From positions 6,614-70,613 of the forward strand of contig CAYUKK010000005.1 in assembly GCA_964445305.1 (NCBI GenBank): 64,000 nucleotides of DNA. The letters run 5' to 3'. A model generated the notes under the pieces. It made no database searches. It was not told where the DNA came from and saw only the letters and a program-made list of their open reading frames with translations. Origin of the DNA: an uncultured Eubacteriales bacterium. GTDB lineage: Bacteria > Acidobacteriota > Aminicenantia > Aminicenantales > UBA8522. The translations under genes were made by a program, and so were the position numbers. Numbering within the stretch: position 1 is the stretch's first letter; every line of letters begins with the position of its first letter. Of this stretch, positions 1,642 through 53,484 are shown in pieces.

Positions 1642-2736
1642 ATGAAGAGAACGCGATTTTATGAGTGCCATGTCAGGCACAAAGCCCGGATGATCGAGTT
1701 TTTTGGCTGGGAGATGCCGCTCGAATTCAAGGGTATCGTCGATGAACACCTGGCCGTGCGCACCGCCGCCGGCCTGTTCGACGTCAGTCACATGGGCGAA
1801 ATCCTCATCGAGGGCAAAGATGCGCTGCCTTTTGTCCAGTACTTGACCCCCAATGACGCCAGCCGCCTGGCCGTGAACCAGGCCCAGTATACGGCCCTGA
1901 CAACCCCACAGGGAACATTTGTTGACGACCTTCTTGTCTATTGCCTCGCTCCGGACAGGTTTCTCCTGGTCGTCAATGCCGCTAATTCGGACAAGGACTA
2001 CGCCTGGATTCTAAGCCATCGGGGCTCCTTCGATGTCCGGGTGGAGAACGCCAGTGACCGTTTTTCCCAGCTGGCCTTGCAGGGACCGAGAGCGGCCGAG
2101 ATTCTTCAGTCGCTTACGGATATCAACCTTTCCGAGCTGAGGCCCTTCTGGGGTGGGTGGGGCAAAGTGGTCGGCGTCGAATCCTTTGTTTCGAGGACTG
2201 GCTACACGGGAGAGGATGGGTTTGAGATCTACACCCTTGCGCCTGACCCCGGTATCATATGGGAGGAAACCTTGAAGAAAGGCGAGAGCGCAGGGCTTTT
2301 GCCCGTTGGCCTGGGAGCGCGCGATACCCTGCGGCTTGAGGCCAAGCTCATGCTCTACGGCAACGACATCGACGAAACCACGACCGTGCTGGAGGCAGAC
2401 CTCAAGTGGATCATCAAGTTCAATAAGGGAGACTTCCTGGGCCGGGAGGCTCTGGCCAGTCAGCTTGAGCAGGGAATCAGGAGGAAAATCGTCGGTTTCG
2501 AACTCGTCGAGCGAGGCATCCCCAGGCGGCATTATCCTGTCTTTATCGGCGGTGAGAAAGTGGGCGAAGTAACATCAGGGACTTTCTCCCCTTACCTGAA
2601 AAAGAGCATTGGGCTGGTTTATCTTCCCGTCGAACATACAGCGCCAGGGACAGAGCTTGAAGTGGCCGTCAGGGAGAAGAGGGTTAAGGGTGTGGTCGTC
2701 CCGACGCCGTTTTATAAGCGTCCAGCTAAACTCTGA
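1642..2736 (+). CDS. gcvT: glycine cleavage system T protein (aminomethyltransferase)
   Basis: 364 aa. N-terminus RTRFYECHVRHKARMIEFFGWEMP and the GLFDVSHMG hallmark. RBS AAGAAGG upstream. Confidence 0.9.
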   Translation: MKRTRFYECHVRHKARMIEFFGWEMPLEFKGIVDEHLAVRTAAGLFDVSHMGEILIEGKDALPFVQYLTPNDASRLAVNQAQYTALTTPQGTFVDDLLVYCLAPDRFLLVVNAANSDKDYAWILSHRGSFDVRVENASDRFSQLALQGPRAAEILQSLTDINLSELRPFWGGWGKVVGVESFVSRTGYTGEDGFEIYTLAPDPGIIWEETLKKGESAGLLPVGLGARDTLRLEAKLMLYGNDIDETTTVLEADLKWIIKFNKGDFLGREALASQLEQGIRRKIVGFELVERGIPRRHYPVFIGGEKVGEVTSGTFSPYLKKSIGLVYLPVEHTAPGTELEVAVREKRVKGVVVPTPFYKRPAKL

Positions 2737-2845
2737 TGAGGGTTATCTCGGACGGCGAGCGGAGAAGAGGAATGACCAGGACGGAGAAATGGAAGGCAAG
2801 AGCAGAGCTCATGCCTTTGCTTGAATAATCCTTCAGGAGGAGATC

Positions 2846-3232
2846 GTGTATCCAAAAGATTTCTTTTTTACCCAAGACCATGAATGGCTGAAAATCGAAG
2901 GCGATGAAGCCCTCGTCGGGATCACGGACTTCGCTCAGAAGCAGCTTGGCGATGTTGTTTATGTGGAGCTTCCGGCAGTCGGGACACAACTGGAAGCCCA
3001 TCAGACCATCGGCGTCGTCGAATCGGTCAAGGCAGTCTCGGATATCTATTCACCAGTCTCCGGTGAAGTCATCGCCGTCAACGAAGAACTCAACAATTCA
3101 CCGGAGCTTCTCAACCAAGATCCCCATGGACAGGGATGGATCATCCGTCTTAAACTGAAGGATAAAGGCGAAGTGGAAAGGCTGATGACCGCCGTCGATT
3201 ATGAGAAATTCCTGGAAGGTCTCATGACCTGA
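2846..3232 (+). CDS. gcvH: glycine cleavage system H protein (lipoyl carrier)
   Basis: 128 aa. DHEWLKIEGDEALVGITDFAQ and the lipoyl-lysine context ESVKAVSD. GTG start preceded by AGGAGGAG. Confidence 0.9.
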   Translation: MYPKDFFFTQDHEWLKIEGDEALVGITDFAQKQLGDVVYVELPAVGTQLEAHQTIGVVESVKAVSDIYSPVSGEVIAVNEELNNSPELLNQDPHGQGWIIRLKLKDKGEVERLMTAVDYEKFLEGLMT

Positions 3233-3256
3233 AAGGGAGGTGCGAGGAGATATTGG

Positions 3257-4603
3257 ATGCGCTACATAGCCCTAAGCGAGAAAGATAAAAAGGAGATGAT
3301 GGCCGCTCTGGGCATCCATTCGCTGGACGACCTCTTCTGCTGCATTCCCTCCCCGTTGCGTCTCCATCGTGAGCTTGAGATTCCGTCGGCCATGAGCGAG
3401 ATGGAGCTCATCAGGCATTTTGAGGCTCTCGGGCGGAAGAATTCAGCCGACCACTTTCTTTCCTTTCTTGGGGGAGGGGCCTATCCCCATGTGATCCCTT
3501 CTCTCGTCGACTCCCTGAGCTCGAGAGGGGAGTTCGTTACCCCCTACACTCCCTACCAGCCCGAAGTCAGTCAGGGGACACTCCAAGTGATCTTCGAGTT
3601 CCAGACGCTCGTCTGTCAGTTGACGGGCATGGAAATTGCCAACGCCTCCCTCTACGAAGGAGCCTCGGCCACGGCTGAGGCCGTCCTCATGGCTTACCGG
3701 CTTCGGGGAAAGCCGAAAGTTCTGATGGCGAGGACGCTTCATCCCCAGTATAGGGAGGTCGTCCAAACCTACGTCAAGAACCTGTTCGTCGAGACCGATG
3801 AGATTGGCTACACCGAGGAAGGGAGGATAAACGTCAAGGACCTGGCTTCGAAAATCGACAGGGAGACGAGTGCTGTTGTGTGCCAGACGCCCAACTTTTT
3901 TGGTGTTATCGAAGAGCTGGAAGAGATCGCGGCCATCGCTCACGAGCACCAGGCGCTTTTTATTGTCGTCGTTTCGGAAGCAGCTTCGCTCGGCCTTCTC
4001 AAGCCGCCCGGCGCCTGTGGCGCAGATATCGTCGCTGGAGAAGGCCAGTCTTTTGGCCTCCCCCTCAGTTTTGGCGGGCCCTATCTCGGTTTTATGGCTT
4101 GCCGGAAGGATTTCCTGCGTCAATTCCCCGGCCGCATCGCTGGCCAGACTCAAGACGCAGAGGGAAGAAGAGGCTTCGTGTTGACGTTGTCGACGCGCGA
4201 GCAGCACATCCGCCGCGAGAGGGCAACGTCGAACATCTGCACCAATCAGGCCTGGTGCGCCCTGCGGGCGACGATTTTTCTCGAGACGATGGGGCAAGCC
4301 GGGATGCGGGAGCTCGCTTACCAGAACATCCAGAAAGCGAACTACGCCCTGGGAAGACTTGCCGCTTGCCAGGGCGTCAAGCGAAAGTTCAGCGGTCCGA
4401 TATTCAACGAGTTCGTGTGCGAGTTTGAGGCTGGCTGGGAAAAGATAGACGGCCATCTCCGGCGGAAGGGTATCTTGGGTGGGCTCAACCTTGAGACCTC
4501 TTACCCGGAGTTAAAAGGGTGTGGACTCCTTTGCGTGACCGAAGTCCATACCAGGGAGGAAATTGGCCGTCTGGTGGGCGCTGTCGAGGAGGTGCTCCAG
4601 TGA
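3257..4603 (+). CDS. gcvPA: glycine dehydrogenase (decarboxylating) subunit 1
   Basis: 448 aa. MRYIALSEKDKKEMMAALGIHSLDDLF is a typical GcvPA N-terminus; split P-protein architecture. Confidence 0.9.
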   Translation: MRYIALSEKDKKEMMAALGIHSLDDLFCCIPSPLRLHRELEIPSAMSEMELIRHFEALGRKNSADHFLSFLGGGAYPHVIPSLVDSLSSRGEFVTPYTPYQPEVSQGTLQVIFEFQTLVCQLTGMEIANASLYEGASATAEAVLMAYRLRGKPKVLMARTLHPQYREVVQTYVKNLFVETDEIGYTEEGRINVKDLASKIDRETSAVVCQTPNFFGVIEELEEIAAIAHEHQALFIVVVSEAASLGLLKPPGACGADIVAGEGQSFGLPLSFGGPYLGFMACRKDFLRQFPGRIAGQTQDAEGRRGFVLTLSTREQHIRRERATSNICTNQAWCALRATIFLETMGQAGMRELAYQNIQKANYALGRLAACQGVKRKFSGPIFNEFVCEFEAGWEKIDGHLRRKGILGGLNLETSYPELKGCGLLCVTEVHTREEIGRLVGAVEEVLQ

Positions 4604-6054
4604 TTCGAGAACCCTTGATTTTCGAGCTCAGCGCTAAGGGCAAACGCGCTTTCTTTTTCCCGACGCTTGACGTCCCGGAGAGGAAAGATTGCCTGGCTGG
4701 AATTTCTCTTCGTCATGAGATCCAGGGTTTCCCCGAAGTCTCGGAAATCGAGATCGTTCGCCACTTTACGCGGCTTTCACAGACGAATTTCTGCGTCGAC
4801 ACAAGCTTTTATCCGCTCGGCTCATGCACTATGAAATACAACCCCAGGGTCAACGAGAGGGTGGCCGCTCGGGAGGCCTGGCTCTCCTGTCATCCGAGCG
4901 CACCTGCCGAGCTTGTCCAGGGAAACCTGGAAGTCCTCAAGACGCTGGAAGACTTGCTGAGTGAAATTACGGGCATGGATGCCTTTACGCTTCAGCCAAG
5001 CGCCGGCGCTCAAGGAGAGCTCACCGGAATGTTGATGATTCGGGCCTGCCTCCAGGAAAGGGGAGATCCGCGCGAGGTCGTCCTCATCCCGGATTCAGCT
5101 CACGGCACCAATCCTTCGAGCGCTCATATCTGCGGCTACCGGGTCGTCGAAATCAAGTCGAATGAAAAAGGGACCATTGACCTGACCAGCCTCGATCAGG
5201 CTATGAACGACAGGGTAGCGGCTTTGATGATCACCAACCCCAATACCCTGGGAATTTTTGAGTCCGAGATAGATAGGATTGCGGGCATCGTTCACGAGCG
5301 GGGAGGTTTGCTCTACATGGACGGTGCGAATATGAACGCCCTCGTCGGGAAATTCAGGCCCGGCGATATGGGTGTCGATGTCCTCCACCTCAATCTCCAC
5401 AAGACCTTCTCCACGCCTCATGGTGGAGGGGGGCCCGGCTCGGGTCCGGTTGGGGTAAAAAAAGAGTTGGCTTGTTATCTTCCTGTCCCGGTCATCGAGA
5501 AAACTTCTGCTGGTTATACCTTGAATTTTGACCTTCCCAAGTCGATCGGCCGGGTGCGGAGTTTTTACGCAAACTTCTTAGTTCTTATCAAGGCCCTGGC
5601 TTACATCCTGAGCCTGGGTGGAGAAGGCTTGAAGGAAGTAGCTGAGGTTTCGGTGCTCAATTCTAATTATATCCGAAAAAGCCTGGAAGGCCTCTATCAC
5701 CTCAAGTACGATGCGCCAACGCTGCACGAATGTGTTTTTTCCGACAAATTCCAGAAAGAGCGCGGTGTGGCCAATATCGATATTGCTAAACGCCTCATCG
5801 ATTATGGGGTTCACCCGCCGACCATGTCCTTCCCTCTCATCGTTCCAGGAGCGTTGATGATCGAGCCGACAGAGACCGAGAGCAAGAGGGACCTCGACAC
5901 GTTCATCGAGGCGATGAAGGCCATCGCCAAGGAGGCTATCGAGAAGCCAGAACTCGTCAGGACTGCGCCTCATACTTCCTACGTCAAGAGACTGGACGAA
6001 ACGAAAGCCGCCCGCTATCCCGTGCTTCGCTGGGAGGGAGAAAAGGAGGAGTAG
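4600..6054 (+). CDS. gcvPB: glycine dehydrogenase (decarboxylating) subunit 2, PLP-binding
   Basis: The ORF track starts at 4519, but the GcvPB-like N-terminus VIREPLIFELS begins at GTG 4600, overlapping the gcvPA TGA stop (GTGA). The PLP-lysine region HLNLHKTFSTPHGGGGPG is present. Confidence 0.88.
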   Translation: MIREPLIFELSAKGKRAFFFPTLDVPERKDCLAGISLRHEIQGFPEVSEIEIVRHFTRLSQTNFCVDTSFYPLGSCTMKYNPRVNERVAAREAWLSCHPSAPAELVQGNLEVLKTLEDLLSEITGMDAFTLQPSAGAQGELTGMLMIRACLQERGDPREVVLIPDSAHGTNPSSAHICGYRVVEIKSNEKGTIDLTSLDQAMNDRVAALMITNPNTLGIFESEIDRIAGIVHERGGLLYMDGANMNALVGKFRPGDMGVDVLHLNLHKTFSTPHGGGGPGSGPVGVKKELACYLPVPVIEKTSAGYTLNFDLPKSIGRVRSFYANFLVLIKALAYILSLGGEGLKEVAEVSVLNSNYIRKSLEGLYHLKYDAPTLHECVFSDKFQKERGVANIDIAKRLIDYGVHPPTMSFPLIVPGALMIEPTETESKRDLDTFIEAMKAIAKEAIEKPELVRTAPHTSYVKRLDETKAARYPVLRWEGEKEE

Positions 6055-42317: not shown

Positions 42318-42923
42318 TCAGTCTCGAACGATGAAATAATCCTTTCGCCCCGAACCGGCTCCCAGCTTGTTCTTGGTCGCTTCTGCTTCTGCTTTCGTCG
42401 CGAACCCGCCGATGCGGACCCGATAGTAAGGAGTCCTGTCTGTCGGCAACGGGTCAAGCACAACGACGGGATAACCCTGATTCTTGAATTGCTCGGCTAA
42501 AGCCAGCGCGGCAGGCTTTTCAATGAGAGCACCAACCTGGACATAGTACAAGTCTTTTTGAGGAGGGGGAGAAGCGATTGGAGCGGAGGTCTTCTCTTGA
42601 GCTTTGAGCTTCTGAGTATCCAAGAGCGGTTGTTTAGCTTCGGGGACGGCTTCTTTCTTCGCTTGGAGCTTCTCTTGCGGAGCGATTTTGGGGGTTGGTT
42701 GCCCGGTCGGAGGAATAACTTCTGGCGTCACGACCTTGTCCTTCAGCGCCTCAGGCTCTTTCGTTACGGCCAGCGTCGCTTTCTCTGCCTCCTGAGCGTG
42801 CCTCTTTCCCACCGATACACCGAGCAAGAAAATGACGACTCCCAGGACGAGGATGCCGAGGAAAATGATGGCTAATTGGGCACTCGAGACCTGAAGCTCT
42901 CTAAACTCTCTCTCTTTCATCAT
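42318..42923 (-). CDS. SPOR-domain membrane protein (peptidoglycan-binding)
   Basis: 201 aa. One TM helix, Pro/Lys/Glu-rich linker, C-terminal [28 protein letters not shown]...[21 protein letters not shown] fold. Confidence 0.6.
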
Positions 42924-43684
42924 GCTTTTTCGGCTTTAGGTCTTTCGTAGGTGAAGGCCTTGAGGAGCTCGAGCGGCAGGGGGAAGATGATGGTCGAGTT
43001 CTTTTCGCTCGCGATCTCGGTCAGAGTGCCAAGGAAGCGAAGCTGTAAAGCTTGAGGGTTGGTGGAAATGATCTCGGCTGCCTGGGTCAACTTGGCAGCG
43101 GCCTGGAATTCGCCGTCAGCATGGATAACCTTGGCCCGTCTTTCCCTCTCCGCCTCTGCCTGTCTGGCAATGGCCCGGATCATCGTTTCCGGCAGGTCGA
43201 CGTGTTTGACTTCGACGAGCTGAACTTTGATTCCCCAGGGGTCGGTGTGTTTGTCCAGAATTTCCTGAAGCTGAACGTTGAGTTTTTCCCTCTGGGAGAG
43301 AAGCTCGTCGAGTTCCACTTCGCCCAGAACGCTCCGTAGGGTTGTTTGGGAGAGGAGGGAGGTGGCATAGAGATAGTCCTGGACTTCGATGACCGCCTTG
43401 AGTGGGTCCATGACGCGGAAGTAGACGACAGCGTTGACCTTCACGGATACGTTATCCCGGGTGATGATATCCTGAGGGGGGACATCCAGGGTGACAAGCC
43501 TCAGGCTTATGCGCACCATGCGGTCGATGGGGGCGAAGACAAAAATGAGGCCTGGACCCTTGGGCCGGGAGAGGACGCGGCCAAGACGAAAAATAACGCC
43601 GCGCTCGTATTCCCTCAAGATCTTGATCGAGTTCAAGAGATAGAGAACGATCAGCCCGATAATGATCACCGGGAAAGTAAGCAT
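42920..43684 (-). CDS. SPFH / band-7 (stomatin-like) protein
   Basis: 254 aa. [12 protein letters not shown]...[17 protein letters not shown] stomatin signature. Confidence 0.75.
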
Positions 43685-43764
43685 TTTTTCCTCCTTATTT
43701 TTTTATCCTTTATTTTTTATCTTAATCCCTTATCGGCCAAGAGATATGGGATTCGGAAGGAAAT

Positions 43765-45129
43765 TCAAAGTTTCTCGACGCGAACTTTCAGTCCCTCCAG
43801 AACGGCGACGACCTTCACTCGACTGCCCCGAGGGATCATGGTCGTCGCTTCGGCGTTCCAGATCTCCCCATGGACAAAGACTTTCCCCTCCGGGTTCAAA
43901 TCTGTTCGGGCCACCCCAACTTCGCCGATGAGTCCCTCCCGGCCGGTGTGAACTTTGCGTGTATGGGCCCGGATGACGAGGAAAACCAGGAAGAGGAAAA
44001 TGAGCGAGAGAGCTACGGCCATGGGGACGATGAACCTTAGGCTTGGCCGAAGCTCTGGGACCGGGGCGTTGATGAGCATGATCGAGCCGAGGACCATGGC
44101 GATAATCCCTCCTACGGATAGGATTCCATAACTTTGAACTTTCACTTCGAGGATAAAAAGGCCGATGGCCAGAAGAATTAAAATAAGGCCGACATAGTTG
44201 ATGGGCAGGATCTGGAAGGAAAAGAAAGCGAGCAAGAGGGAGATCCCGCCCAGGACGCCGGGAAGGATAGCGCCCGGGTTAGCAAACTCAAAATAAAGGC
44301 CGAGGAGCCCGAGCATGAGAAGGATATAAGCCAAGTTAGGGTTGGAGATGGTGAGAAGGAATTTTTGGCGGGTGGACATCGGGATGTTGAGGACAGGCTC
44401 TTCCTTGAGGCGAAGGGTAAGCTCTTGTCCGTCAAAGCGCCGGATGGTCTTCTGGTCAAAGTGGGTGAAGATTTCCTGTTCGCTGCTGGCGATAAAGTCG
44501 ATGAGGCCCTTATCCAGCGCTTCTTTTTCCGTGTAGGACAAGCTCTGGCGGACAGCATCTTCGGCCATGCGGACGTTCCGCCCTCTTTTCTCGGCCAAAG
44601 TCTTGATGTAGGCTGCGGCGTCGTGGGTGATTTTCTCCTCCATCGTCTTATCCATGGTCTGTCCGGTGATGGAGATCCCGACAGGATGAGCTGCCCCCGT
44701 GCTTGTTCCTGGAGCCATGATGAACAGGTCGCTGGCGATAGCAATGAAAAAGCCAGCCGAGGCAGCCCGGGCACCGCTCGGGCTGACGTAAACGGCCACC
44801 GGCGTTCGCGCAGCCAGGATGCGGGTGATGATCTCGCGCATCGAACTATCGAGGCCGCCGGGGGTGTTCAAGACGATGAGCACCAGGCGGGCGTTCTCTT
44901 TTTCTGCTCTGTCGATGGTCATGGTGATGTATTCTGAAGTAATCGGGTGGATCGGCGCGTCGACCGTGATTTTCAGGATCGAGGCGAGGCTGGGAAAAGA
45001 ACAGAAAAACAGAAGAAAAAGGAAACACAGCAGCCAGGAATTCTTTCTCACTCTATTTCCATTATAGGAGGTGCAACAGGTCAAGTCAACAACAATCGCT
45101 GATAAGAGTATTCGGATGATTTCATACAT
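43765..45129 (-). CDS. NfeD-family membrane protein (ClpP-class serine protease domain plus C-terminal OB-fold), stomatin partner
   Basis: 454 aa. LNTPGGLDSSMREI (ClpP-like) and C-terminal GSRVKVVAVEGLKVRVE OB domain. Adjacent to the SPFH gene as in nfeD-stomatin operons. Confidence 0.7.
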   Translation of the reverse strand: MYEIIRILLSAIVVDLTCCTSYNGNRVRKNSWLLCFLFLLFFCSFPSLASILKITVDAPIHPITSEYITMTIDRAEKENARLVLIVLNTPGGLDSSMREIITRILAARTPVAVYVSPSGARAASAGFFIAIASDLFIMAPGTSTGAAHPVGISITGQTMDKTMEEKITHDAAAYIKTLAEKRGRNVRMAEDAVRQSLSYTEKEALDKGLIDFIASSEQEIFTHFDQKTIRRFDGQELTLRLKEEPVLNIPMSTRQKFLLTISNPNLAYILLMLGLLGLYFEFANPGAILPGVLGGISLLLAFFSFQILPINYVGLILILLAIGLFILEVKVQSYGILSVGGIIAMVLGSIMLINAPVPELRPSLRFIVPMAVALSLIFLFLVFLVIRAHTRKVHTGREGLIGEVGVARTDLNPEGKVFVHGEIWNAEATTMIPRGSRVKVVAVLEGLKVRVEKL

Positions 45130-45462
45130 ACAGTCCTAGAAGTGCCCCACAAAAAAGGGCGATCTTTCGCTGACTCATTGGATATCTGCCAGAGACATCG
45201 ATTTTCATCTGGATAGGCTAAATTTGGGCTGATTTTTTGGTTACAATGGGGTCTACTCACTAAATGAGAGGAGAATCTCACTCGGAGAGTTTCCAGAGGA
45301 AAGCCCATGGATTGTGCCAGAATCGCCGCAAAATTGCGAGAGCAAATCGTCCAATTCTCGGGGGAACTTTCTTCTGGACTTCCGAAGGGCGGGCCTGGAA
45401 CCCGCGGACAAGCAAAAAGCGCCGGAAATCACCCTGACTTCTCCATTCGGTTAAAGAGAGAA

Positions 45463-45783
45463 TCACAAAAAATATTCAGCGGGGGCCTCGGTGGCCATCA
45501 GAAGCTCCTGATAGACGATGCGGTGGGGGATATAGAGAAGAAGTGTCTCCTGCATCCACTCACTTGACACTCCTCCAGCCTCTCGGCGTGGCAAGAAAGA
45601 CAGAACCCCCGGGTGCGGTAGGAGAAAATCATGAGGCGCTCCACATGGCATTAGGGACAGCGAATGCGGGAAACCCACGACTCGGGTGGCCGCAGTCAGG
45701 CGTCGTTGCGAGGGGCGAAGCGACGCGGGAATCTTGTTTCCCGGGCGAGGCACGACGGGATTACGATGGCTCTGTGGCCTCAT
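45463..45783 (-). pseudogene. remnant of an IS200/IS605-TnpA- or RAYT-like Y1 transposase gene (copy A; C-terminal end only)
   Basis: Ends ...LLLYIPHRIVYQELLMATEAPAEYFL*. This shares the (I/V)VYQE(L/F)L...AEY C-terminus with the copy at 53485-53889 and with fragments at ~51095 and ~60050. No intact HUH motif. Confidence 0.3.
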
Positions 45784-46178
45784 GATGACCTGCGGTCAGT
45801 TCTATAATGGCCGGCCGAAGGAACTCATAATCCTTCTCGAAGCGCGACTTATACCCAGCAAGAAATTTATCCAAGTAATGAAACAACACTCGGTAGAGGA
45901 TCGTCTGTTTGGGGTGCCGAAGGCGATAGTTTCCAACTATGACAGGAGAATGGCCTCAAGAAAGGGGCCATTGTTATGGGGCCAGCCGCTCTTCCTGAAA
46001 AGAGGGAAGGAGTCCCCCTCAGGAAAACAGATTCCAAGCCATAAACTATCCACCTAAATTGACGCCCAGCCTAGAGAATAGACACGCTAGCAGACTAGCG
46101 GAATCGTCATCGGCGTCGAGGCCATAGACGCTAAGGCTGAACGAGGATGAATGCATCGTCATTGAAATCAGGTACAGC

Positions 46179-46739
46179 TTACATGTTTAGCAATAACCTC
46201 CGGAGTTCGTTGCCCAAATCTTGAACCCTAGTCACTTTAAGGGCTTTGCAAAGGGCCTTGATAAAAGGATCGCTCATAACATCTTCTAAAGCCTCAGGTG
46301 AAAAAAGGCTGGGCTCCATAACCACTCCTCGGCTTTGTTCCCCGCACGAATTAATGGGACATGACTTCAGCCCCCTGCAATCCTGTTGGCCGCAACCGTT
46401 TTTATCACAAGATTTTAGAGGGATGGAAAGAGTCGTGCCACTACGCAGCTCGATGAAGAGACCACATTTCTCACCACCACCAGGATCGGGAATAAAGCCG
46501 GTCGGGAGGCCACCGAATTCGCTCAAGAAAATCTCATCCCTCGGGAAAAGTAGCGCTTTGATCATTTTTGCTTTAGTCGATAGAGCGCCGATGCGGACCG
46601 TAGCTTCCAATTCGGCTTTTGAGACTCGGGTTTGAGCTGAGATCAGACCAGCTTTTGTGGCACCCACGCCTGCTAGCCCAGCCGAAAGCTGCGCCAACTT
46701 GCTGAGAACTTCTCTTCTCGTCAATCGATTGTTTTTCAT
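46179..46739 (-). CDS. Tat-signal Cys-pentad-repeat protein, paralog 1 (putative substrate of the adjacent radical SAM/SPASM enzyme)
   Basis: 186 aa. N-terminal RREVLSKLAQLSAGLAGVGA (twin-Arg plus hydrophobic region). Repeats CDKNG/CGQQD/CRGLKS/CPINS/CGEQS. Conserved C-terminal SDPFIKALCKALKVTRVQDLGNELRRLL. Confidence 0.6.
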   Translation of the reverse strand: MKNNRLTRREVLSKLAQLSAGLAGVGATKAGLISAQTRVSKAELEATVRIGALSTKAKMIKALLFPRDEIFLSEFGGLPTGFIPDPGGGEKCGLFIELRSGTTLSIPLKSCDKNGCGQQDCRGLKSCPINSCGEQSRGVVMEPSLFSPEALEDVMSDPFIKALCKALKVTRVQDLGNELRRLLLNM

Positions 46740-46778
46740 TGTTTTCGCCTTTAAAGATTTTTGTCTTATTAGATTCGA

Positions 46779-47336
46779 TTAACGGACCAAAAGCCTTCGG
46801 AGCTCGTAGCTCAGACCTTGCGCTGTTGTCACCTTAAGTTGCCTGCAAAGGGCAAGAATGAACGGGTCGTTCATGATCTGTGATAATTCTCTTTCGGAAA
46901 AAATGTTTGATTCACCCGTGAGCATCCCTTGCTTCGGGCAGTAATTTTCCTCACACCCTGACAACTTCGAGCATTTCTGATCTTCGCACCAGTTATAATC
47001 ACAGTCGGCCAGATTGCCACATTTCTGTTTAGAACACGTCTGGCCCTCGAAAAAAAAGTCACATTTTTCTCCTCCCGGGAATGCAGAGAACATGCCCAGA
47101 GGAACACGGCCGAATTCCGCCTGGAAGACATCACGTTGGGGAAAGAGCAGCACTTTGATCGCCTTAGCCATCGCCGCTTCGGCTTTGACGCCAGTGAGGC
47201 TTTCCAAGTCCTTTATTCCGATTCGCGTCTGAGCCCATGAGCTTGCAGGCTTGAGACTGCTGACGCCGCCAAGCAGAGCCAGAAGCTCCATCAATCGCTT
47301 AAAAGCTTGACGCCTGGTAACCTTTTGATTTCTCAT
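46779..47336 (-). CDS. Tat-signal Cys-pentad-repeat protein, paralog 2
   Basis: 185 aa. TRRQAFKRLMELLALLGGVS. Repeats CSKQK/CGNLAD/CDYNW/CEDQK/CSKLSG/CEENY/CPKQG. C-terminal NDPFILALCRQLKVTTAQGLSYELRRLL. Confidence 0.6.
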   Translation of the reverse strand: MRNQKVTRRQAFKRLMELLALLGGVSSLKPASSWAQTRIGIKDLESLTGVKAEAAMAKAIKVLLFPQRDVFQAEFGRVPLGMFSAFPGGEKCDFFFEGQTCSKQKCGNLADCDYNWCEDQKCSKLSGCEENYCPKQGMLTGESNIFSERELSQIMNDPFILALCRQLKVTTAQGLSYELRRLLVR

Positions 47337-47339
47337 TAT

Positions 47340-48734
47340 TTACCCTCCTTTGAAATTTAGTTTTTTTAGGTTGCGGTCCTTATCGGCTGCCTGATATAGC
47401 TCGACAAGGGCCCAAAACTTTTGCGATATCTCCAATTCTCTGCTCATTCTTTTCAAGCAGTAATAAAAGAAAATATTTTCATCAAGATAATATTTCCAGG
47501 TGTGGCAGCTCACTTTCCCCGTCTTTCCGTAGACATAAGGACATCCTCCCATGCAGATTGGCAGGAGCTTGCAGGAGGCGCATTCGAGGTCAAATGGGTT
47601 TCGCTGCCGCCACCTTTCGAGATTCTTCTGCCAGTCTGCCGAGGCCGACTCGAGGAGGTGTCCGACCTCTGCGTGCGATTCAGCTACCTCGTTCCAGCAT
47701 TTAACAATGCCGCCGCGCGGGGTGATGGCGTAGGCGCATTCATGATCCGCCATACAGAAAATATTTCGGCTTTTCGGCACACCAAAAGAGCGGAAGCCCC
47801 GCCTCGCCATTTCGATAGAGGTTTCGAGCTCGAGCAGGGAAAAGTCGTCCTCGCTTAGGCACCATCCGGAGATATCCTGGCAGACCGATGTATAAGCGTA
47901 CGTACGACCTATGTAGAAGCCAACACGCTCTTTTAATGCCTCGCTCTCCAGGATCTCCATTAGATCTAGAATATGATCCTTGTTTGTTTCATCGACGTTC
48001 ATCCGGATGTGGATTTTGAGCTTCGAAGTCGCCTCATGAATATTTTTTAAAATTCTATGGAATGTTCCTCTGCCGTCGGCGAGCGGCCGCCTCCGGTTAT
48101 GAACCGCGGGGGGCCCATCGAGCGTGACTTGGATATGGCTGATCTTGAGTTGGGCCAGCTTTTCAGCGGTCTTGAGGTCAAGCAGGTATCCATTAGTCAC
48201 CATGTCAGCGCTGTAATCAGCTCCGCAGTTCTGGCAGATTTCGATAAACTTTTCCGAAAGGCGTTCGATTAACGACCGGAAGAGCAACGGCTCGCCCCCA
48301 AACCAGGTGACATTGAGCGATTTATGGCTGAACATCCTTTCTTGGACAAATCGGATAACCGCGTCTTCAACGTTTCCGGCCATCGAGGCCGGGTTCCTCT
48401 CTTGGTAACAATAGACGCACCTGAAATTACAGGCCAGGGTGGGGATGATGGTCATGCTCAGGACGCTCTGATCGGTGCACCCCATCTTGTAGTTCTCCTT
48501 CAAAGAGGCGATTTCATCGGCGTCGTCAGGGATCAGGAATCCGTGGTTGATCAGAGCATTCAGAATTTGCGTTGAATTCTTTGCTTTCCAATCTCGGTTG
48601 GGGTTATATAGAATCCGTTTAGCCAGACCAGCTTCGTAGCCTCTTAAAGCAAGGAGCGAAAGAGTATAGAAATTTAGGAAGAGCGTTGTTCCATTGGGAA
48701 GTCTAAGACAATAGTTATACAAAGAAGCTTTCAA
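47340..48734 (-). CDS. radical SAM / SPASM-domain peptide- or protein-modifying enzyme with a ~95-aa N-terminal RRE-like extension
   Basis: 464 aa. CNFRCVYCYQ (CX3CX2C). C-terminal SPASM cysteines CASCKLLPICMGGCPYV. 3-nt and 7-nt gaps to the flanking paralog genes. Confidence 0.8.
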   Translation of the reverse strand: MKASLYNYCLRLPNGTTLFLNFYTLSLLALRGYEAGLAKRILYNPNRDWKAKNSTQILNALINHGFLIPDDADEIASLKENYKMGCTDQSVLSMTIIPTLACNFRCVYCYQERNPASMAGNVEDAVIRFVQERMFSHKSLNVTWFGGEPLLFRSLIERLSEKFIEICQNCGADYSADMVTNGYLLDLKTAEKLAQLKISHIQVTLDGPPAVHNRRRPLADGRGTFHRILKNIHEATSKLKIHIRMNVDETNKDHILDLMEILESEALKERVGFYIGRTYAYTSVCQDISGWCLSEDDFSLLELETSIEMARRGFRSFGVPKSRNIFCMADHECAYAITPRGGIVKCWNEVAESHAEVGHLLESASADWQKNLERWRQRNPFDLECASCKLLPICMGGCPYVYGKTGKVSCHTWKYYLDENIFFYYCLKRMSRELEISQKFWALVELYQAADKDRNLKKLNFKGG

Positions 48735-48741
48735 AGTCCGG

Positions 48742-49299
48742 CTACCTCCGAGCGCTCATCATGTTGAGGAGCTCCTGCGAAAGCTGTTCAGCCGTAGTGA
48801 CATTGAATTCCTTGAAGAGGGCTTTGACAAACGGGTCGGATTTGTGCATGTTCAAAAAATCCTTTGAGCTTGAATCGATATACATCGTGCAGGTCAGGCC
48901 AGTGCAGTTCTGTTTTGAACAATCATTCTCATCGCAGGACTTCAGACCGCAGGTCTGGTTCACACATCCATTTTTCCCACAGGAAGAAGACTGCATGGAG
49001 GATGGTGTCGGCGAGAAAAAGTCGTCACATTTTTGAATCACCCCAAGATCTCCCGATCCCGCCATCAAGGGTGCTCGTCCGAACTCATTGATATAGATTT
49101 CCCGCGTCCCTATAACCAAGATCTTGAGAGATTTTGTCTCTCTGGATAGGGCCTGTGCTTTGGCCAGAGCATCGAAATTGATGCGTCTCGTCTGAGCGAG
49201 AAAGGCCCGAACCTGGGTAGCACTCAGGCCAGCGGCCAGACCGATGATCTTGATCAGACGAGAGATGGCTTCTCTTCTTGAAAGGTGGTTAACTCTCAT
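48742..49299 (-). CDS. Tat-signal Cys-pentad-repeat protein, paralog 3
   Basis: Start set at MRVNHLSRREAISRLIKIIGLAAGLSA (SD AAGGAG 9 nt upstream), giving 185 aa. Repeats CGKNG/CVNQT/CGLKS/CDEND/CSKQN/CTGLT/C. C-terminal SDPFVKALFKEFNVTTAEQLSQELLNMM. Confidence 0.6.
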   Translation of the reverse strand: MRVNHLSRREAISRLIKIIGLAAGLSATQVRAFLAQTRRINFDALAKAQALSRETKSLKILVIGTREIYINEFGRAPLMAGSGDLGVIQKCDDFFSPTPSSMQSSSCGKNGCVNQTCGLKSCDENDCSKQNCTGLTCTMYIDSSSKDFLNMHKSDPFVKALFKEFNVTTAEQLSQELLNMMSARR

Positions 49300-49789
49300 C
49301 AGAATGCTCCTTGGTGAATCATAATGAATCCTATTAATAAGAGACAGAAAACCGCTTTCCCATCTCACTCGAAGGAGAAAATTTTGTTGATTAGGACTTC
49401 ACAACTATCCACCGTTTGGCTCTGAATTTGCTGCTCGGCCCAGAAGATTAGATATTGGGAAAATGATGATTTGATGCCTCTCCTCGGCAAATATAGGAGA
49501 TTTCTTTTCGGCTGTGGTAACTGGGAGGCATCTTAATTATCATTTTCCTGTTTAGCCATCGCCAAGAGATATGAATCACGAAAAAAATGGATGTCAAAGA
49601 CAATTAAAAGCAGTACCTAGTGGGCGAAAATGCATCATAAGCCGCCTCGGCGCCGGGAAAATGCTGAAAATCAGGGGGACATTTCCTTCTGGTCAAAGGA
49701 AAGATTATGAAAAATAATAGGCCGAAGCCTTGGAGTCCAAGAAGAATCCCGGGAGACCCTATGAGGCGGTGGGGGCTTCGAGGCGATAA

Positions 49790-50150
49790 AGGTCAGGTTG
49801 AGGTGGTTGATGTTCCTGTTCACGACCGCAGTGTCTGTCAAGAAGGCGATGATCTTCATCATGGCGCCCCACTTGGGGCAGGTCGAGGGGTCGATTTCAA
49901 AAACCTTGAGGATCATCTCGGCCCAGCCTCGGCGGGGACGGGCTGGAGCTCCTCTTCGACAATACAAAGAGGAAAGAGTGCGAGGCTTGACTTGCGGACC
50001 TTGCCCTGATGGGCGTTGGCATACAACCCGTAATAACGCACCGCGACCTGACCCTTGTCGGGAATGTGGGAGGCGACCCGGGCGATGAACTCTGGGTAGT
50101 CTATCTGCTTCGCCTCTTGGTTGCTTTCCCCACATCCGTGGCAGGAGCAT
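49790..50150 (-). pseudogene. IS91-family (Y2 HUH) transposase C-terminal fragment, frameshifted and N-terminally truncated
   Basis: Two overlapping frames give ...DYPEFIARVASHIPDKGQVAVRYYGLYANAHQGKVRKS and then ...WAEMILKVFEIDPSTCPKWGAMMKIIAFLTDTAVVNRNINHLNL. This matches the IS91-type C-terminus (RYYGxYxN ... CPxCGxxMxIIAxI ... HLGL). No HUH/Y2 catalytic part remains. Confidence 0.5.
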
Positions 50151-50436
50151 CTGTTGGCGGCTCTTCTTGATGAACCCGGCATCGCTCGCGACGTCCCCGT
50201 CTGGAAGTTCATGTTTCCTGCGACTGGAGGGGAAATCAGATTTTTCGACCCCCTCGGTGTCATTCCCAGGCGTGAGTGAGGGTCCGCCCACCAGGATTTT
50301 TTTCGAGATCTTCTCCCGTTTTTCCAAAGATTTGGAGATTGTTAAGGCGTGACCCTAAAATTTGACAAATTAAATAATTTTAATATGAAATAATTGTATA
50401 ATAAAATTAATATTTCCTTAGTTGCGAGGTTATCAG

Positions 50437-50931
50437 ATGGAAATAGAAAAAATCCGATTTCTCAGAGAGAAGCTCCGTTATATGGAACGGCAGATGAGCG
50501 ACGCCTTCGGCCGCGATTCAGGTTGCTGCGGCCTGACCCTGGCCCAATGCCACAGCCTTCTCGAAGTCGGCTACAAAGGCAAGGTTTCGCTCGTCGAACT
50601 GGCCTCGAGCTTAAGTCTTGACACAAGCACGCTCAGCCGGATGATCCAGGGTCTCGTCCTCCTCGGCTTGGTCAATCGGGAGACAAGCGAGAAGGACCGC
50701 CGTTATGTCGTCATCTCCCTCACGAACCAGGGTCGCACAGCATTCGACGAAATCGAAGCGAGATTCAATTCCTACTTCACCCAGGTCATGGAGTTTATCC
50801 CTGCGGAAAAGCGGGAGGCCGTGATCGAGTCGATTGGGCTCTTCTCCGATGCGGTCAGAAAGCAGAGCGAGTTTTCCAGCTGTTGTCAGGCCGACGACGA
50901 TTTGAGCGAAAACGGAAACGCCACAGGATAA
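50437..50931 (+). CDS. MarR-family transcriptional regulator
   Basis: Start at MEIEKIRFL (SD GAGGT). Winged HTH LVELASSLSLDTSTLSRMIQGLVLLGLVNRETSEKDRRYVVISLTNQGR. Preceded by an ~80-nt AT-rich promoter region (50340-50420). Confidence 0.7.
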   Translation: MEIEKIRFLREKLRYMERQMSDAFGRDSGCCGLTLAQCHSLLEVGYKGKVSLVELASSLSLDTSTLSRMIQGLVLLGLVNRETSEKDRRYVVISLTNQGRTAFDEIEARFNSYFTQVMEFIPAEKREAVIESIGLFSDAVRKQSEFSSCCQADDDLSENGNATG

Positions 50932-51530: not shown

Positions 51531-52787
51531 CTAAAAGATGCGGAAGATGTTGAAACCGACCCGGAAATCGCCGTCTCTCAGACTCAAATCGCCCCCGGGG
51601 AGGTATTGAGCAGCGGTCAGGCCGATCGAATTGGTGACAAAAAACTGGAATACATGCCCGCCAATATTCTTTTCAACGCCCAGTCCCCAGCCAGGATAAC
51701 GATCGTTGTAGCCGGCCAGATGTGGAACCCATTCTGCGATGACGGAGACTTCGTCGAAGACCACGAAGCGCCCTCCGATCCCCAGGGCGAAGGTGCCTTC
51801 CGAATCCGGTTCCCAGAAATTGGTATTGGAGGAAAACGCCGGAACGAGCAGGAGTGAGACCCGGTCGTTGAGCTGGCAGGACAGGCTCACCAGCGCACTG
51901 AGCCGGAACCGGCCTGACCATTCTGCCCCGGGGGGCTCATCCTGGCTAACCAGGCTTCCCCCGGTGTGGAGAGAGGCTGAAAAGGGGAGGGAGCCGTTTC
52001 CTCCCTGTTCAAGGAAGGCCCAATCGACGTTGAATTCCCATTCCTGATAGAGCCTGCTTCGTCCGATCGTCATCATCAGGTCATCTGTTATGCCGTAGCC
52101 GAAGCTGAAGAGGATGTAGGCCGTTCCGTCGAGACCGAAGAAAGAATTCCAACCGCTGGAGACAGCCGGTTGAAAACGGTGCGATATGCGAAACAGGAAA
52201 TCCCCTTTGCCTGGGGTTACGGTTGTCGGTAGGTTGACCAGCCTGGTTCCCCAGAAGACGGGTCTGGAATATCGTCTGGGATTGGAGCTTTGGGCTGGGC
52301 TCTTGCTTTTTAGATTCGGCTGTCTGAACTCGGGGCCGCGGCTAATGAAACCGGGATTGAGAATACCGTTTGCGTCGGTGGAGCTTGCGGCCAGGCTCTT
52401 TATCCACTCCTCGATTTGGCGGATTTGCTCCTCAGTCAAGGGATCATGGTTTAGGGGCATGCGCTTGCCGACAATCCCGGCCGCTCCTTTGACCTTTGCG
52501 ATTAGGTCGCTTTTTTCGGGCGCACCTGGTTCGACAATCTTGAGTTCAGCCTTCTTCAGGCTTGATATCCCGAGAACCGAAGCGAGGAGCGTTTCTTGTT
52601 CCAGGCTTAGGTTGGCCGAAGGGTTTTTGCCCGAATGACAACCTGCGACACTGCAACTTTGCTTCATTATGCTCTTGACTGTGGCCAGAAGATTTGTCGG
52701 AGAATCTCCAGGCCCCTGGCTGTAAAGAGGCGAGCTCAGTGCGAAAAGCACCGTGACCTTGATAATCAACAGGACCTTGGTTTTCAT
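51531..52787 (-). CDS. exported protein with an N-terminal PSCyt1-like cytochrome-c-type domain (CX4CH) fused to a C-terminal beta-barrel (terminal Phe)
   Basis: 418 aa. Signal peptide MKTKVLLIIKVTVLFALSS. MKQSCSVAGCHSG ... GKRMPL ... EEQIRQIEEWIKSLA. Glycine/aromatic-rich C-terminal half ending GFNIFRIF. Confidence 0.5.
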   Translation of the reverse strand: MKTKVLLIIKVTVLFALSSPLYSQGPGDSPTNLLATVKSIMKQSCSVAGCHSGKNPSANLSLEQETLLASVLGISSLKKAELKIVEPGAPEKSDLIAKVKGAAGIVGKRMPLNHDPLTEEQIRQIEEWIKSLAASSTDANGILNPGFISRGPEFRQPNLKSKSPAQSSNPRRYSRPVFWGTRLVNLPTTVTPGKGDFLFRISHRFQPAVSSGWNSFFGLDGTAYILFSFGYGITDDLMMTIGRSRLYQEWEFNVDWAFLEQGGNGSLPFSASLHTGGSLVSQDEPPGAEWSGRFRLSALVSLSCQLNDRVSLLLVPAFSSNTNFWEPDSEGTFALGIGGRFVVFDEVSVIAEWVPHLAGYNDRYPGWGLGVEKNIGGHVFQFFVTNSIGLTAAQYLPGGDLSLRDGDFRVGFNIFRIF

Positions 52788-52859: not shown

Positions 52860-53294
52860 TCAATTATTCTTGGCCCCTTTGTTGATCCAGTTCTTAATGT
52901 TCTGGACGGAATTGGCGTTGAGAGCTGATCCGCCAAGGGGCATCCGGCCGCCGTTTGTCTGCCGGCCTTCGAGTTTGATGACGAGATAACTATTCGTAGC
53001 GTCGTTGGGGATAACCCGCCTTTTCCCCGGTTCTTGGGTTGAGGGCACGTCGACGAGGTTGGCATAAGACTGCCCCTGGAGAAGAATCAATCCCGCCGCA
53101 GCGCTGTTACCGTGGCAGCTTGATGAAATGCAGCTCTGGCTGAAGATCGGCTGAATATCTGAGGCGAATGAGGGATCCTCTTTGACTATGGAGGGGGGCT
53201 GGGGACTGGTGGGGGAATAGCTGCCACAGTGATAGAGAATGACCGCTGCAAGGATAGCTAGGATTGCTATAACGGGCCACGATTTTATGTTCAT
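52860..53294 (-). CDS. exported PSCyt1-like cytochrome-c-type domain protein (CX4CH), paralogous to the N-terminal domain of the upstream gene
   Basis: Start at MNIKSWPVIAILAILAAV (SD AAGGAG), 144 aa. FSQSCISSSCHGN ... GGRMPL ... VQNIKNWINKGA. Confidence 0.5.
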   Translation of the reverse strand: MNIKSWPVIAILAILAAVILYHCGSYSPTSPQPPSIVKEDPSFASDIQPIFSQSCISSSCHGNSAAAGLILLQGQSYANLVDVPSTQEPGKRRVIPNDATNSYLVIKLEGRQTNGGRMPLGGSALNANSVQNIKNWINKGAKNN

Positions 53295-53484
53295 CAGGAG
53301 ACTCCTTATAAAATCTACAAATATTATAGGAATACTAGGAAAAAAAATCAAGTAGCCCTGGCAGAATAGTGGAGGACGGGTCAGGAAGCCGCAGATAGGT
53401 CTAAGAGCCCGGTAATCAGCCAGACCTTTCCTTTCGGGCGAACTGAAGATCATGAACAGTATTCAGCTAAGGTCTCAGCAGCCG

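Follow-up and report, generated by a model that had tools for sequence, protein, structure and literature searches.

To our knowledge, radical S-adenosylmethionine (SAM)/SPASM enzymes that form thioethers are known almost only for short peptide products, and QhpC and the sulfatases are the rare cases in which a whole protein is the substrate. The enzymes of the CteB/SCIFF and PapB/freyrasin systems are built on one three-part plan, composed of a recognition element (RRE) for ribosomally made peptides that carry post-translational modifications (RiPPs), a radical SAM core, and a SPASM domain that holds two auxiliary clusters, and Cys motifs recur in their substrates, with a polar acceptor lying a few residues off. 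PapB links Cys to Asp/Glu within such repeated motifs (PMC9413430). In the whole-protein case of QhpC, the radical SAM/SPASM enzyme QhpD installs several Cys-to-Asp/Glu thioethers in the cytoplasm in what later becomes a periplasmic protein, whose 28-residue leader is cut by the dedicated protease QhpE and whose export is carried out by the ABC transporter QhpF (PMC7876137). Here, we analyze a cassette of four genes found in a 64,000-nucleotide (nt) stretch of DNA from an uncultured Eubacteriales bacterium (GTDB lineage Acidobacteriota; Aminicenantia; assembly GCA_964445305.1, contig CAYUKK010000005.1, positions 6,614 to 70,613), hereafter the window, in which a radical SAM/SPASM enzyme (designated rSAM) is accompanied by three paralogous proteins (paralogs 1 to 3). 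The reading that we favor, with confidence somewhat better than even, is that rSAM modifies three protein-sized substrates in which a ranthipeptide-type cross-linking core has moved into a protein scaffold, probably one exported by the twin-arginine translocation (Tat) system.

In kind, the cassette resembles radical SAM/SPASM systems for cross-linking, be it of the ranthipeptide or of the 'Cys-every-fifth' type, albeit with an enzyme and substrates that both fail every curated family threshold. What appears to be new is the combination of a protein-sized precursor, a core placed internally in a predicted helical scaffold, an invariant twin-arginine and the lack of any linked protease or exporter, a combination absent from the libraries searched. 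If the proposed reading holds, the family would add to the whole-protein substrates a case that is widespread, though sparse, in environmental bacteria, and in which a folded protein has apparently received a RiPP-type Cys-repeat core in the form of a loop.

That the paralogs and the enzyme belong together is indicated first by their conserved adjacency. A search of other genomes for the family next to rSAM genes, a check close to one put forward in the preliminary description of this DNA, revealed a family member directly flanking an rSAM in 14 distinct loci (the window together with its copy L002, L001, L003, L005, L006, L008, L088, L089, L090, L091, L013, L092, L095 and L096). The association is seen from both sides: among rSAM homologues of 39-54% identity, every examined locus has 1-3 flanking members (L003, L005, L006, L008, L088, L089, L090, L091), and from the substrate side an rSAM lies next door in 5/5 informative loci (L001, L002, L092, L095, L096), two contigs of <2 kb having been left out as too short. 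A metagenome locus scan with a narrower alignment gave 4 loci. The 79 genome loci whose rSAMs are <=36% identical contain one family member only, a divergent protein in an Acidobacteriota genome (L013), and the rest of the sister loci encode, in tandem arrays, Cys-rich peptides of 36-66 aa that bear MK(F/Y)I(V/K)KP leaders, as is typical of classic RiPP loci. On the strength of this adjacency, an enzyme-substrate relationship between rSAM and the paralogs appears very probable, and the data support a strict linkage of the paralog family to this rSAM subfamily. No protease, transporter or other gene was found to recur across the family loci. In the sister loci, rSAMs of 34-36% identity have 1-5 short Cys-rich peptides beside them, arranged in tandem if more than one is present, and some of the cores read C..NC.NDC..QC, echoing the Asn/Gln pattern of the window family described below.

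The four open reading frames (ORFs) were confirmed by an ORF check, including the intergenic gaps of 7, 3 and 39 nt that had been reported for them. Read 5' to 3' on the minus strand, the order is paralog 1, rSAM, paralog 2, paralog 3, and ribosome-binding sites precede paralog 1 (AAGGAG), rSAM and paralog 2 (GGAGG for both); this layout fits one translationally coupled operon. The TTG start assigned to rSAM is supported by the homologue consensus MKxSxYNY, and a longer form of paralog 1 with a GTG start (49368) is unlikely because the twin arginine lies ~8 residues from the start in all full-length relatives.

The three paralogs share 35-42% identity with one another, and a family profile matches them at E values of 1e-49 to 1e-60 (paralog 1 at E 1e-59), a similarity far beyond chance that leads us to reject a chance cluster of ORFs. 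A lipoprotein reading was likewise discarded, as the paralogs lack a lipobox Cys. The preliminary description did not recognize the family, and no Pfam, NCBIfam or PADLOC model was found for it here; the case that the paralogs might match a known family unrelated to rSAM modification was examined in Pfam and NCBIfam, and no such family emerged. The searchable literature yielded nothing on this family or its substrate architecture. The nearest model is that of the CefA precursors (NF038108), with matches below the cut-off of 30 bits for paralog 1 (21.6 bits, residues 104-138) and paralog 3 (16.5 bits), none for paralog 2, and weak matches to the Cys loop in 12/41 family members. The family is visible only through exhaustive profile searching combined with inspection of the neighborhoods of rSAM homologues. 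A word-indexed search with paralog 2 returned 2 proteins, namely an identical metagenome copy and one relative of ~56-57% identity (P0002), and a word-indexed search with the family alignment returned only 9, as compared with 72 proteins at E <=1e-3, 54 of them at E <=1e-10, from an exhaustive profile search of 1.84 billion cluster representatives.

Full-length family members are mostly ~180-345 aa. The family alignment comprises 41 members, and the N-terminus was analyzed in 60 full-length members. Residues R8, R9, C92, C112 and L175 are invariant in the alignment; G24, K58, K61, E74, G76, R77, P79, four further Cys, D157 and L163 are nearly so. Two segments recur family-wide outside the Cys region, a mid segment of the form K-x-[IL]-K-[VI]-L...[VI]F-x-x-EFGR-x-P and C-terminal helices of the form DPF/Y-[IV]-x-x-L...V-T-T...L, which in paralog 1 begin at DPF155. 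The LLFP(R/Q)D motif and ELRRLL ending that had been ascribed to all three paralogs hold for paralogs 2 and 3; paralog 1 reads LVIGTREIY...ELLNMM. Upstream- and downstream-type copies are kept as separate orthologues: paralog 1 shares 46% identity with the upstream copy of L003, paralog 2 shares 57% with P0002, its positional counterpart in L001, and paralog 3 shares 60% with the second of the downstream copies of that locus. Each copy thus seems to be maintained in its own right and not as a redundant duplicate. As to how such proteins are annotated, L002 (JGI 3300010284) is an identical metagenome copy of the window cassette for which the starts in the public gene calls are displaced downstream, by 4 residues for rSAM and by 15 for paralog 2, so that the RR motif of paralog 2 is lost; truncated calls of this sort would hide the leader in database surveys.

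The enzyme itself has the hallmarks of its class. The preliminary description of a CX3CX2C motif and a C-terminal SPASM cluster is borne out in full: the former is C102-X3-C106-X2-C109, and the latter (C327-X13-G341-X4-C346; C385-X2-C388-X5-C394-X3-C398; C410) matches the complete seven-Cys SPASM motif CX9-15GX4C...CX2CX5CX3C...C. These cysteines are invariant in the 34 homologues (39-54% identity), and Pfam Radical_SAM (PF04055) scores 62 bits against a cut-off of 29.5. An RRE-like N-terminal extension had also been proposed, and in an AlphaFold2 (AF2) model with a mean predicted local distance difference test score (pLDDT) of 90.5, the N-terminus forms strands at residues 7-11, 16-21 and 26-31 followed by helices at 32-43, 54-63 and 74-86 (pLDDT >90), i.e. 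a predicted RRE-type domain of beta3-alpha3 topology; Pfam PqqD does not match this N-terminus. A PDB sequence search identified CteB as the best solved relative, and with Foldseek the rSAM model also matched CteB best (5WHY/5WGG, E 2e-18, ~435 columns, RRE included), followed by TigE and then, in third place, the anaerobic sulfatase-maturating enzyme (anSME). A PADLOC match of rSAM to pVip reflects generic rSAM-core similarity and is not evidence of a defence role.

Comparison with SPASM subfamily hidden Markov models (HMMs), another check named in the preliminary description, placed thioether-forming or Cys-rich-peptide maturases nearest. The top NCBIfam match is Clo7bot TIGR04334 (315.5 bits, cut-off 600), followed by the very small Cys-rich peptide maturase model TIGR04463 (311.5 bits, cut-off 525) and the CefB 'Cys-every-fifth' maturase (NF038107; 212.9 bits, cut-off 600), all three end to end; PapB NF047865 scores 135.3 bits (E 3e-39, cut-off 340) and the SCIFF maturase TIGR03974 64.8 bits (cut-off 425). 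As all of these scores lie below the cut-offs, rSAM belongs to none of the named families. The likeness to CefA/CefB extends to the substrate, where Cys recurs at every fifth residue in the core, and, like the window cassette, the sister loci carry multiple precursor copies. However, the CefA profile has only 65 positions and the sister precursors are 36-66 aa, whereas the window precursors are 3-5 times longer and possess the RR N-terminus and a predicted helical scaffold; at 185-186 aa they are indeed far larger than typical RiPP precursors, as had been remarked. Compared with CteB and PapB, the shared three-part plan is accompanied by enzyme identity of only ~20% to CteB, by family substrates of 185-345 aa in place of ~45-aa peptides, by a Cys core that is internal between predicted helical halves rather than C-terminal, by candidate acceptors that are Asn/Gln rather than Asp/Thr, and by the invariant RR N-terminus.

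The two whole-protein precedents are more distant. QhpC had been offered as a parallel and serves here as an analogy only: the QhpD model scores 68.7 bits against a cut-off of 453, no qhpA/B/E/F/G genes are linked to the cassette, and a QhpCD system was accordingly rejected. In contrast to QhpC, the window system has no linked protease, transporter or dehydrogenase subunit, and the precursor itself bears a Tat-like N-terminus. An anSME with its own distant substrate, which the preliminary description had named as a finding that would overturn its reading, resembles rSAM, on the reading favored here, in being a SPASM enzyme whose protein substrate is modified in the cytoplasm prior to export. 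Yet the anSME model TIGR03942 gives 64.6 bits against a cut-off of 349, the C/S-x-P/A-x-R motif is absent from all three paralogs, anSMEs have no RRE domain, and no sulfatase gene lies near the cassette. This candidate was rejected, and the comparisons support assignment of rSAM as a SPASM peptide/protein maturase.

With CteB and PapB as the closest characterized relatives, side-chain thioether chemistry on the paralogs is probable by analogy. Weighing against it is that every named maturase model scores rSAM far below its curated cut-off, such that function is being transferred across 20-36% identity. These same scores leave room for a different radical chemistry, such as alpha-carbon (sactionine) thioethers, C-C/C-O cross-links, epimerisation or another change at Cys, Asn or Gln; SPASM maturases of similar fold (SuiB, TigE, SkfB, ChlB and EpeE are among the fold matches) perform varied reactions, and the acceptor residue is not provable from sequence. 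Nonetheless, the dominant feature of the substrates is their 6-17 cysteines at fixed CX4/CX5 spacing, the nearest relatives (CteB, PapB, CefB and the Cys-rich peptide maturases) all act on cysteines, and the Cys core offers no conserved aromatic for a cyclophane (Trp 0.6%, Tyr 1.4%, Phe 3.3%). We therefore consider another chemistry rather improbable.

The Cys loop varies in length across the family. Each window paralog was initially credited with a run of 5-7 CX4 or CX5 units; paralogs 1 and 2 have 6 consecutive units each, with seven Cys of paralog 1 at exact CX4 spacing, and paralog 3 has only 4. Family-wide, CX4C (241 times) and CX5C (157 times) are the dominant spacings, the third residue within CX4C is Gln in 37% and Asn in 35%, and 43/64 members contain a super-repeat, C-x-x-N-x-C-x-x-Q-x-C-x-x-L-x-x-C. 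An AF2 model of paralog 2 is helical at residues 41-80 and 148-184 (pLDDT >90), and residues 82-142, the Cys loop region, have pLDDT <50; the model thus predicts that a small helical domain is split in two by the insertion of a Cys loop that is itself disordered. This insertion is drawn from a single AF2 model built on the shallow 41-sequence alignment, and the low confidence within the loop must be counted against it. Divergent members in L013 and L091 have differently organized Cys regions, such as CKKLSCTGMHCKGQDCGEFGCEVVSCKGAEC, and adjoin rSAMs of 35-39% identity; judged by these sequences, they may constitute a second subfamily.

A loop rich in Cys and Gly might alternatively be a metal or Fe-S site, with Tat used for the cofactor, as is common for cofactor-bearing exported proteins, and with rSAM accessory or uninvolved. 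This is very improbable, however, given that in 14 loci the family strictly adjoins a peptide maturase with an RRE and that the sister systems are classic RiPP loci; moreover, CX4C/CX5C with Asn/Gln corresponds to no known motif for Fe-S binding or zinc fingers and drew only single stray Pfam matches.

The preliminary description assigned each paralog a twin-arginine leader, and the RR pair is indeed invariant, in 41/41 aligned and 60/60 full-length members, lying at residues 6-19 with one outlier at residue 2. It is preceded by [LMI][TSN] (T/S/N in 83%, T or S in 72%) and followed by the consensus [EDKN]-A-[MLIV]-x-[RK]-[LIV]-x-K-..-A-x-A-A-G-L-S, with M/L/I/V three positions after RR in 87%. 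After AAGLS comes an uncharged stretch, mostly of 11-16 residues and with a Kyte-Doolittle mean mostly of ~1.0-2.3, and then L-L-A; in the window paralogs the small residues SWA, ISA and FLA precede Q36. Distant members possess canonical motifs, including SNRRSFLRSLVLAPLGAALLWSAGAVFQATAFA in L013 (SNRRSFLRS together with AFA and a long hydrophobic stretch) and (R)REFLKR in L091, and thus keep RR in a textbook motif although the rest of the segment differs. The host is a diderm, as indicated by the presence of a gene for Lnt. On these grounds, we think it probable that the paralogs are exported by Tat, a reading to which several features run counter: two positions after RR, Ala occurs in 80% of members and Phe in only 8%, the Tat HMM TIGR01409 matches 2/41 members at E 0.13 or worse and thus misses 39/41, Pfam TAT_signal matches 0/41, the uncharged stretch after RR is short, and in about half of the members Asp/Glu occurs just after AAGLS (S-x-x-E). 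The last pattern resembles a helix cap more than it does the c-region of a signal peptide and hints at a helix-turn-helix (HTH) leader.

Alternatively, the RR segment could be, in whole or in part, a leader bound by the RRE, with an HTH of the form RREAMxRLxK..AxAAG-LS-xxEVxxLLA, rather than an export signal; the product would then be retained in the cytoplasm or exported by a route not linked to the cassette. The failure of the Tat HMMs suits this explanation, as do conservation beyond RR that is unusual for signal peptides (A12, A14, G16, the S-x-x-E/D cap and L25/L26), stray weak LacI/PurR HTH matches that fit the Ala-x3-Gly-hydrophobic HTH pattern, and the need of the predicted RRE-type domain for some leader to bind. 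We nevertheless hold it to be unlikely, though not negligibly so. The divergent members retain RRxFL(K/R), a long hydrophobic stretch and AxA while the rest changes, and paralogs 2 and 3 replace the putative second helix with Pro/Gly-rich sequence that ends in SWA|Q and ISA|Q. In addition, a second conserved segment, KxIKVL...EFGRxP, could serve as the RRE site, and no exporter or protease is conserved, even though cross-linked products such as QhpC need them (PMC7876137).

Taken together with Tat export, the proposed pathway would begin in the cytoplasm, where the RRE-type domain of rSAM would dock on a conserved precursor segment, either the RR-containing N-terminal helix or the K-x-I-K-V-L...VF-x-x-EFGR-x-P segment. 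The CX3CX2C cluster would cleave SAM, and the resulting 5'-deoxyadenosyl radical would take a side-chain hydrogen from an acceptor residue, most likely the Asn/Gln three residues after each Cys. A Cys thiolate at an auxiliary SPASM cluster would then close the thioether, with the reaction repeated several times along the super-repeat. As the stapled loop is predicted to lie between domain halves, the product would be a cross-linked protein rather than a released peptide. A multiply stapled loop cannot thread through Sec, and for it Tat would be the logical route; the twin-arginine N-terminus would direct the cross-linked protein via Tat to the periplasm, where signal peptidase would cut near ..A|Q at approximately residue 35. 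Export by Tat would also explain the absence of a conserved dedicated protease or exporter beside the system. Our guess at the mature product is a protein that resists proteases in the periplasm or at the surface and that possibly binds a metal or other ligand.

TorD, DmsD and NapD are Tat proofreading chaperones for cofactor enzymes, and it is enticing to speculate that rSAM plays a similar part. The RR leader would then double as Tat signal and RRE-bound element, and the maturase would retain its grip on the signal peptide for as long as stapling of the Cys loop is incomplete, and only afterwards release a knotted protein that Tat alone can export. We regard this dual role as doubtful; if true, it would define a new class of Tat cargo, whose export route is dictated by covalent cross-links instead of a cofactor, as well as a documented evolutionary step from RiPP peptide to post-translationally stapled protein. 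Under the simpler reading of Tat export after cross-linking, the product may use a general export pathway in place of a dedicated protease and transporter, and the family offers a means of asking whether covalent cross-linking is a reason for Tat use. The system would also provide a simple two-gene setting in which an RRE-bearing maturase handles a folded, protein-sized substrate, and a possible scaffold for the display of enzymatically stapled loops. Such substrates would escape genome-mining tools that are set up for short precursors.

Table 1. Coordinates of the cassette, its neighbors and related loci (window positions unless a locus number is given)
Feature	Position (nt)	Strand	Details
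Paralog 1, 'upstream-type' precursor protein	48742..49299	-	185 aa, ATG start; ORF and translation
Paralog 1, RR	49273-49278	-	residues 8-9
Paralog 1, Cys loop	48889-49029	-	residues 91-137; CGKNGCVNQTCGLKSCDENDCSKQNCTGLTC
Radical SAM/SPASM maturase (rSAM)	47340..48734	-	464 aa, TTG start
rSAM, predicted RRE-type domain	48477-48734	-	residues 1-86
rSAM, CX3CX2C	48408-48431	-	residues 102-109
rSAM, SPASM	47505-47756	-	residues 327-410
Paralog 2, 'downstream-type' precursor	46779..47336	-	185 aa; ORF and translation
Paralog 2, RR	47310-47315	-	residues 8-9
Paralog 2, Cys loop	46938-47063	-	residues 92-133
Paralog 3, second 'downstream-type' precursor	46179..46739	-	186 aa; ORF and translation
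Paralog 3, RR	46713-46718	-	residues 8-9
Paralog 3, Cys loop	46344-46466	-	residues 92-132
Cassette	46179-49299	-	four genes
Region of lower G+C	46000-50400		G+C 0.49
Band 7/SPFH gene and membrane NfeD (ClpP-class) protease gene	42920-45129	-	directly downstream of the cassette
Region between NfeD gene and paralog 3	45130-46178		~1.05 kb
Y2-type transposase fragment	49913-50263	-	Pfam Y2_Tnp, E 3e-7
MarR-family regulator gene	50422-50931	+	
DUF5777 membrane beta-barrel protein	51531-52787		SCSVAGCHSG
Neighbor of DUF5777 gene	52860-53453		SCISSSCHGN
L013, divergent member	3146-3928		
L091, divergent member	5107-5976		
L002, genes of identical cassette copy	2591-3973, 4022-4534		
L021, sister peptide locus	3057-3858		
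L011, sister peptide locus	2981-3890		
L018, sister peptide locus	5405-5797		
L032, sister peptide locus	5461-5661		

The neighbors of the cassette in the window are genes for Band 7, NfeD, Lnt, MarR and DUF5777 proteins and the transposase fragment, the last of which lies next to the cassette, as does the MarR-family gene (Table 1). The G+C content of the cassette region is 0.49, compared with ~0.53-0.55 in nearby windows, and the cassette may have been acquired horizontally; a tblastn search for plasmid homologues found none. An Rfam scan of the window gave no matches, and the region between the NfeD gene and paralog 3 is without a convincing gene, its small overlapping ORFs having no Pfam match. 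In L006, too, the homologous system has an NfeD gene in its vicinity, a proximity at two loci that is probably coincidence. Finally, the DUF5777 membrane beta-barrel protein and the product of the adjacent gene each carry a CxxCH-like or CH motif near the N-terminus, and these motifs could be haem-binding sites.

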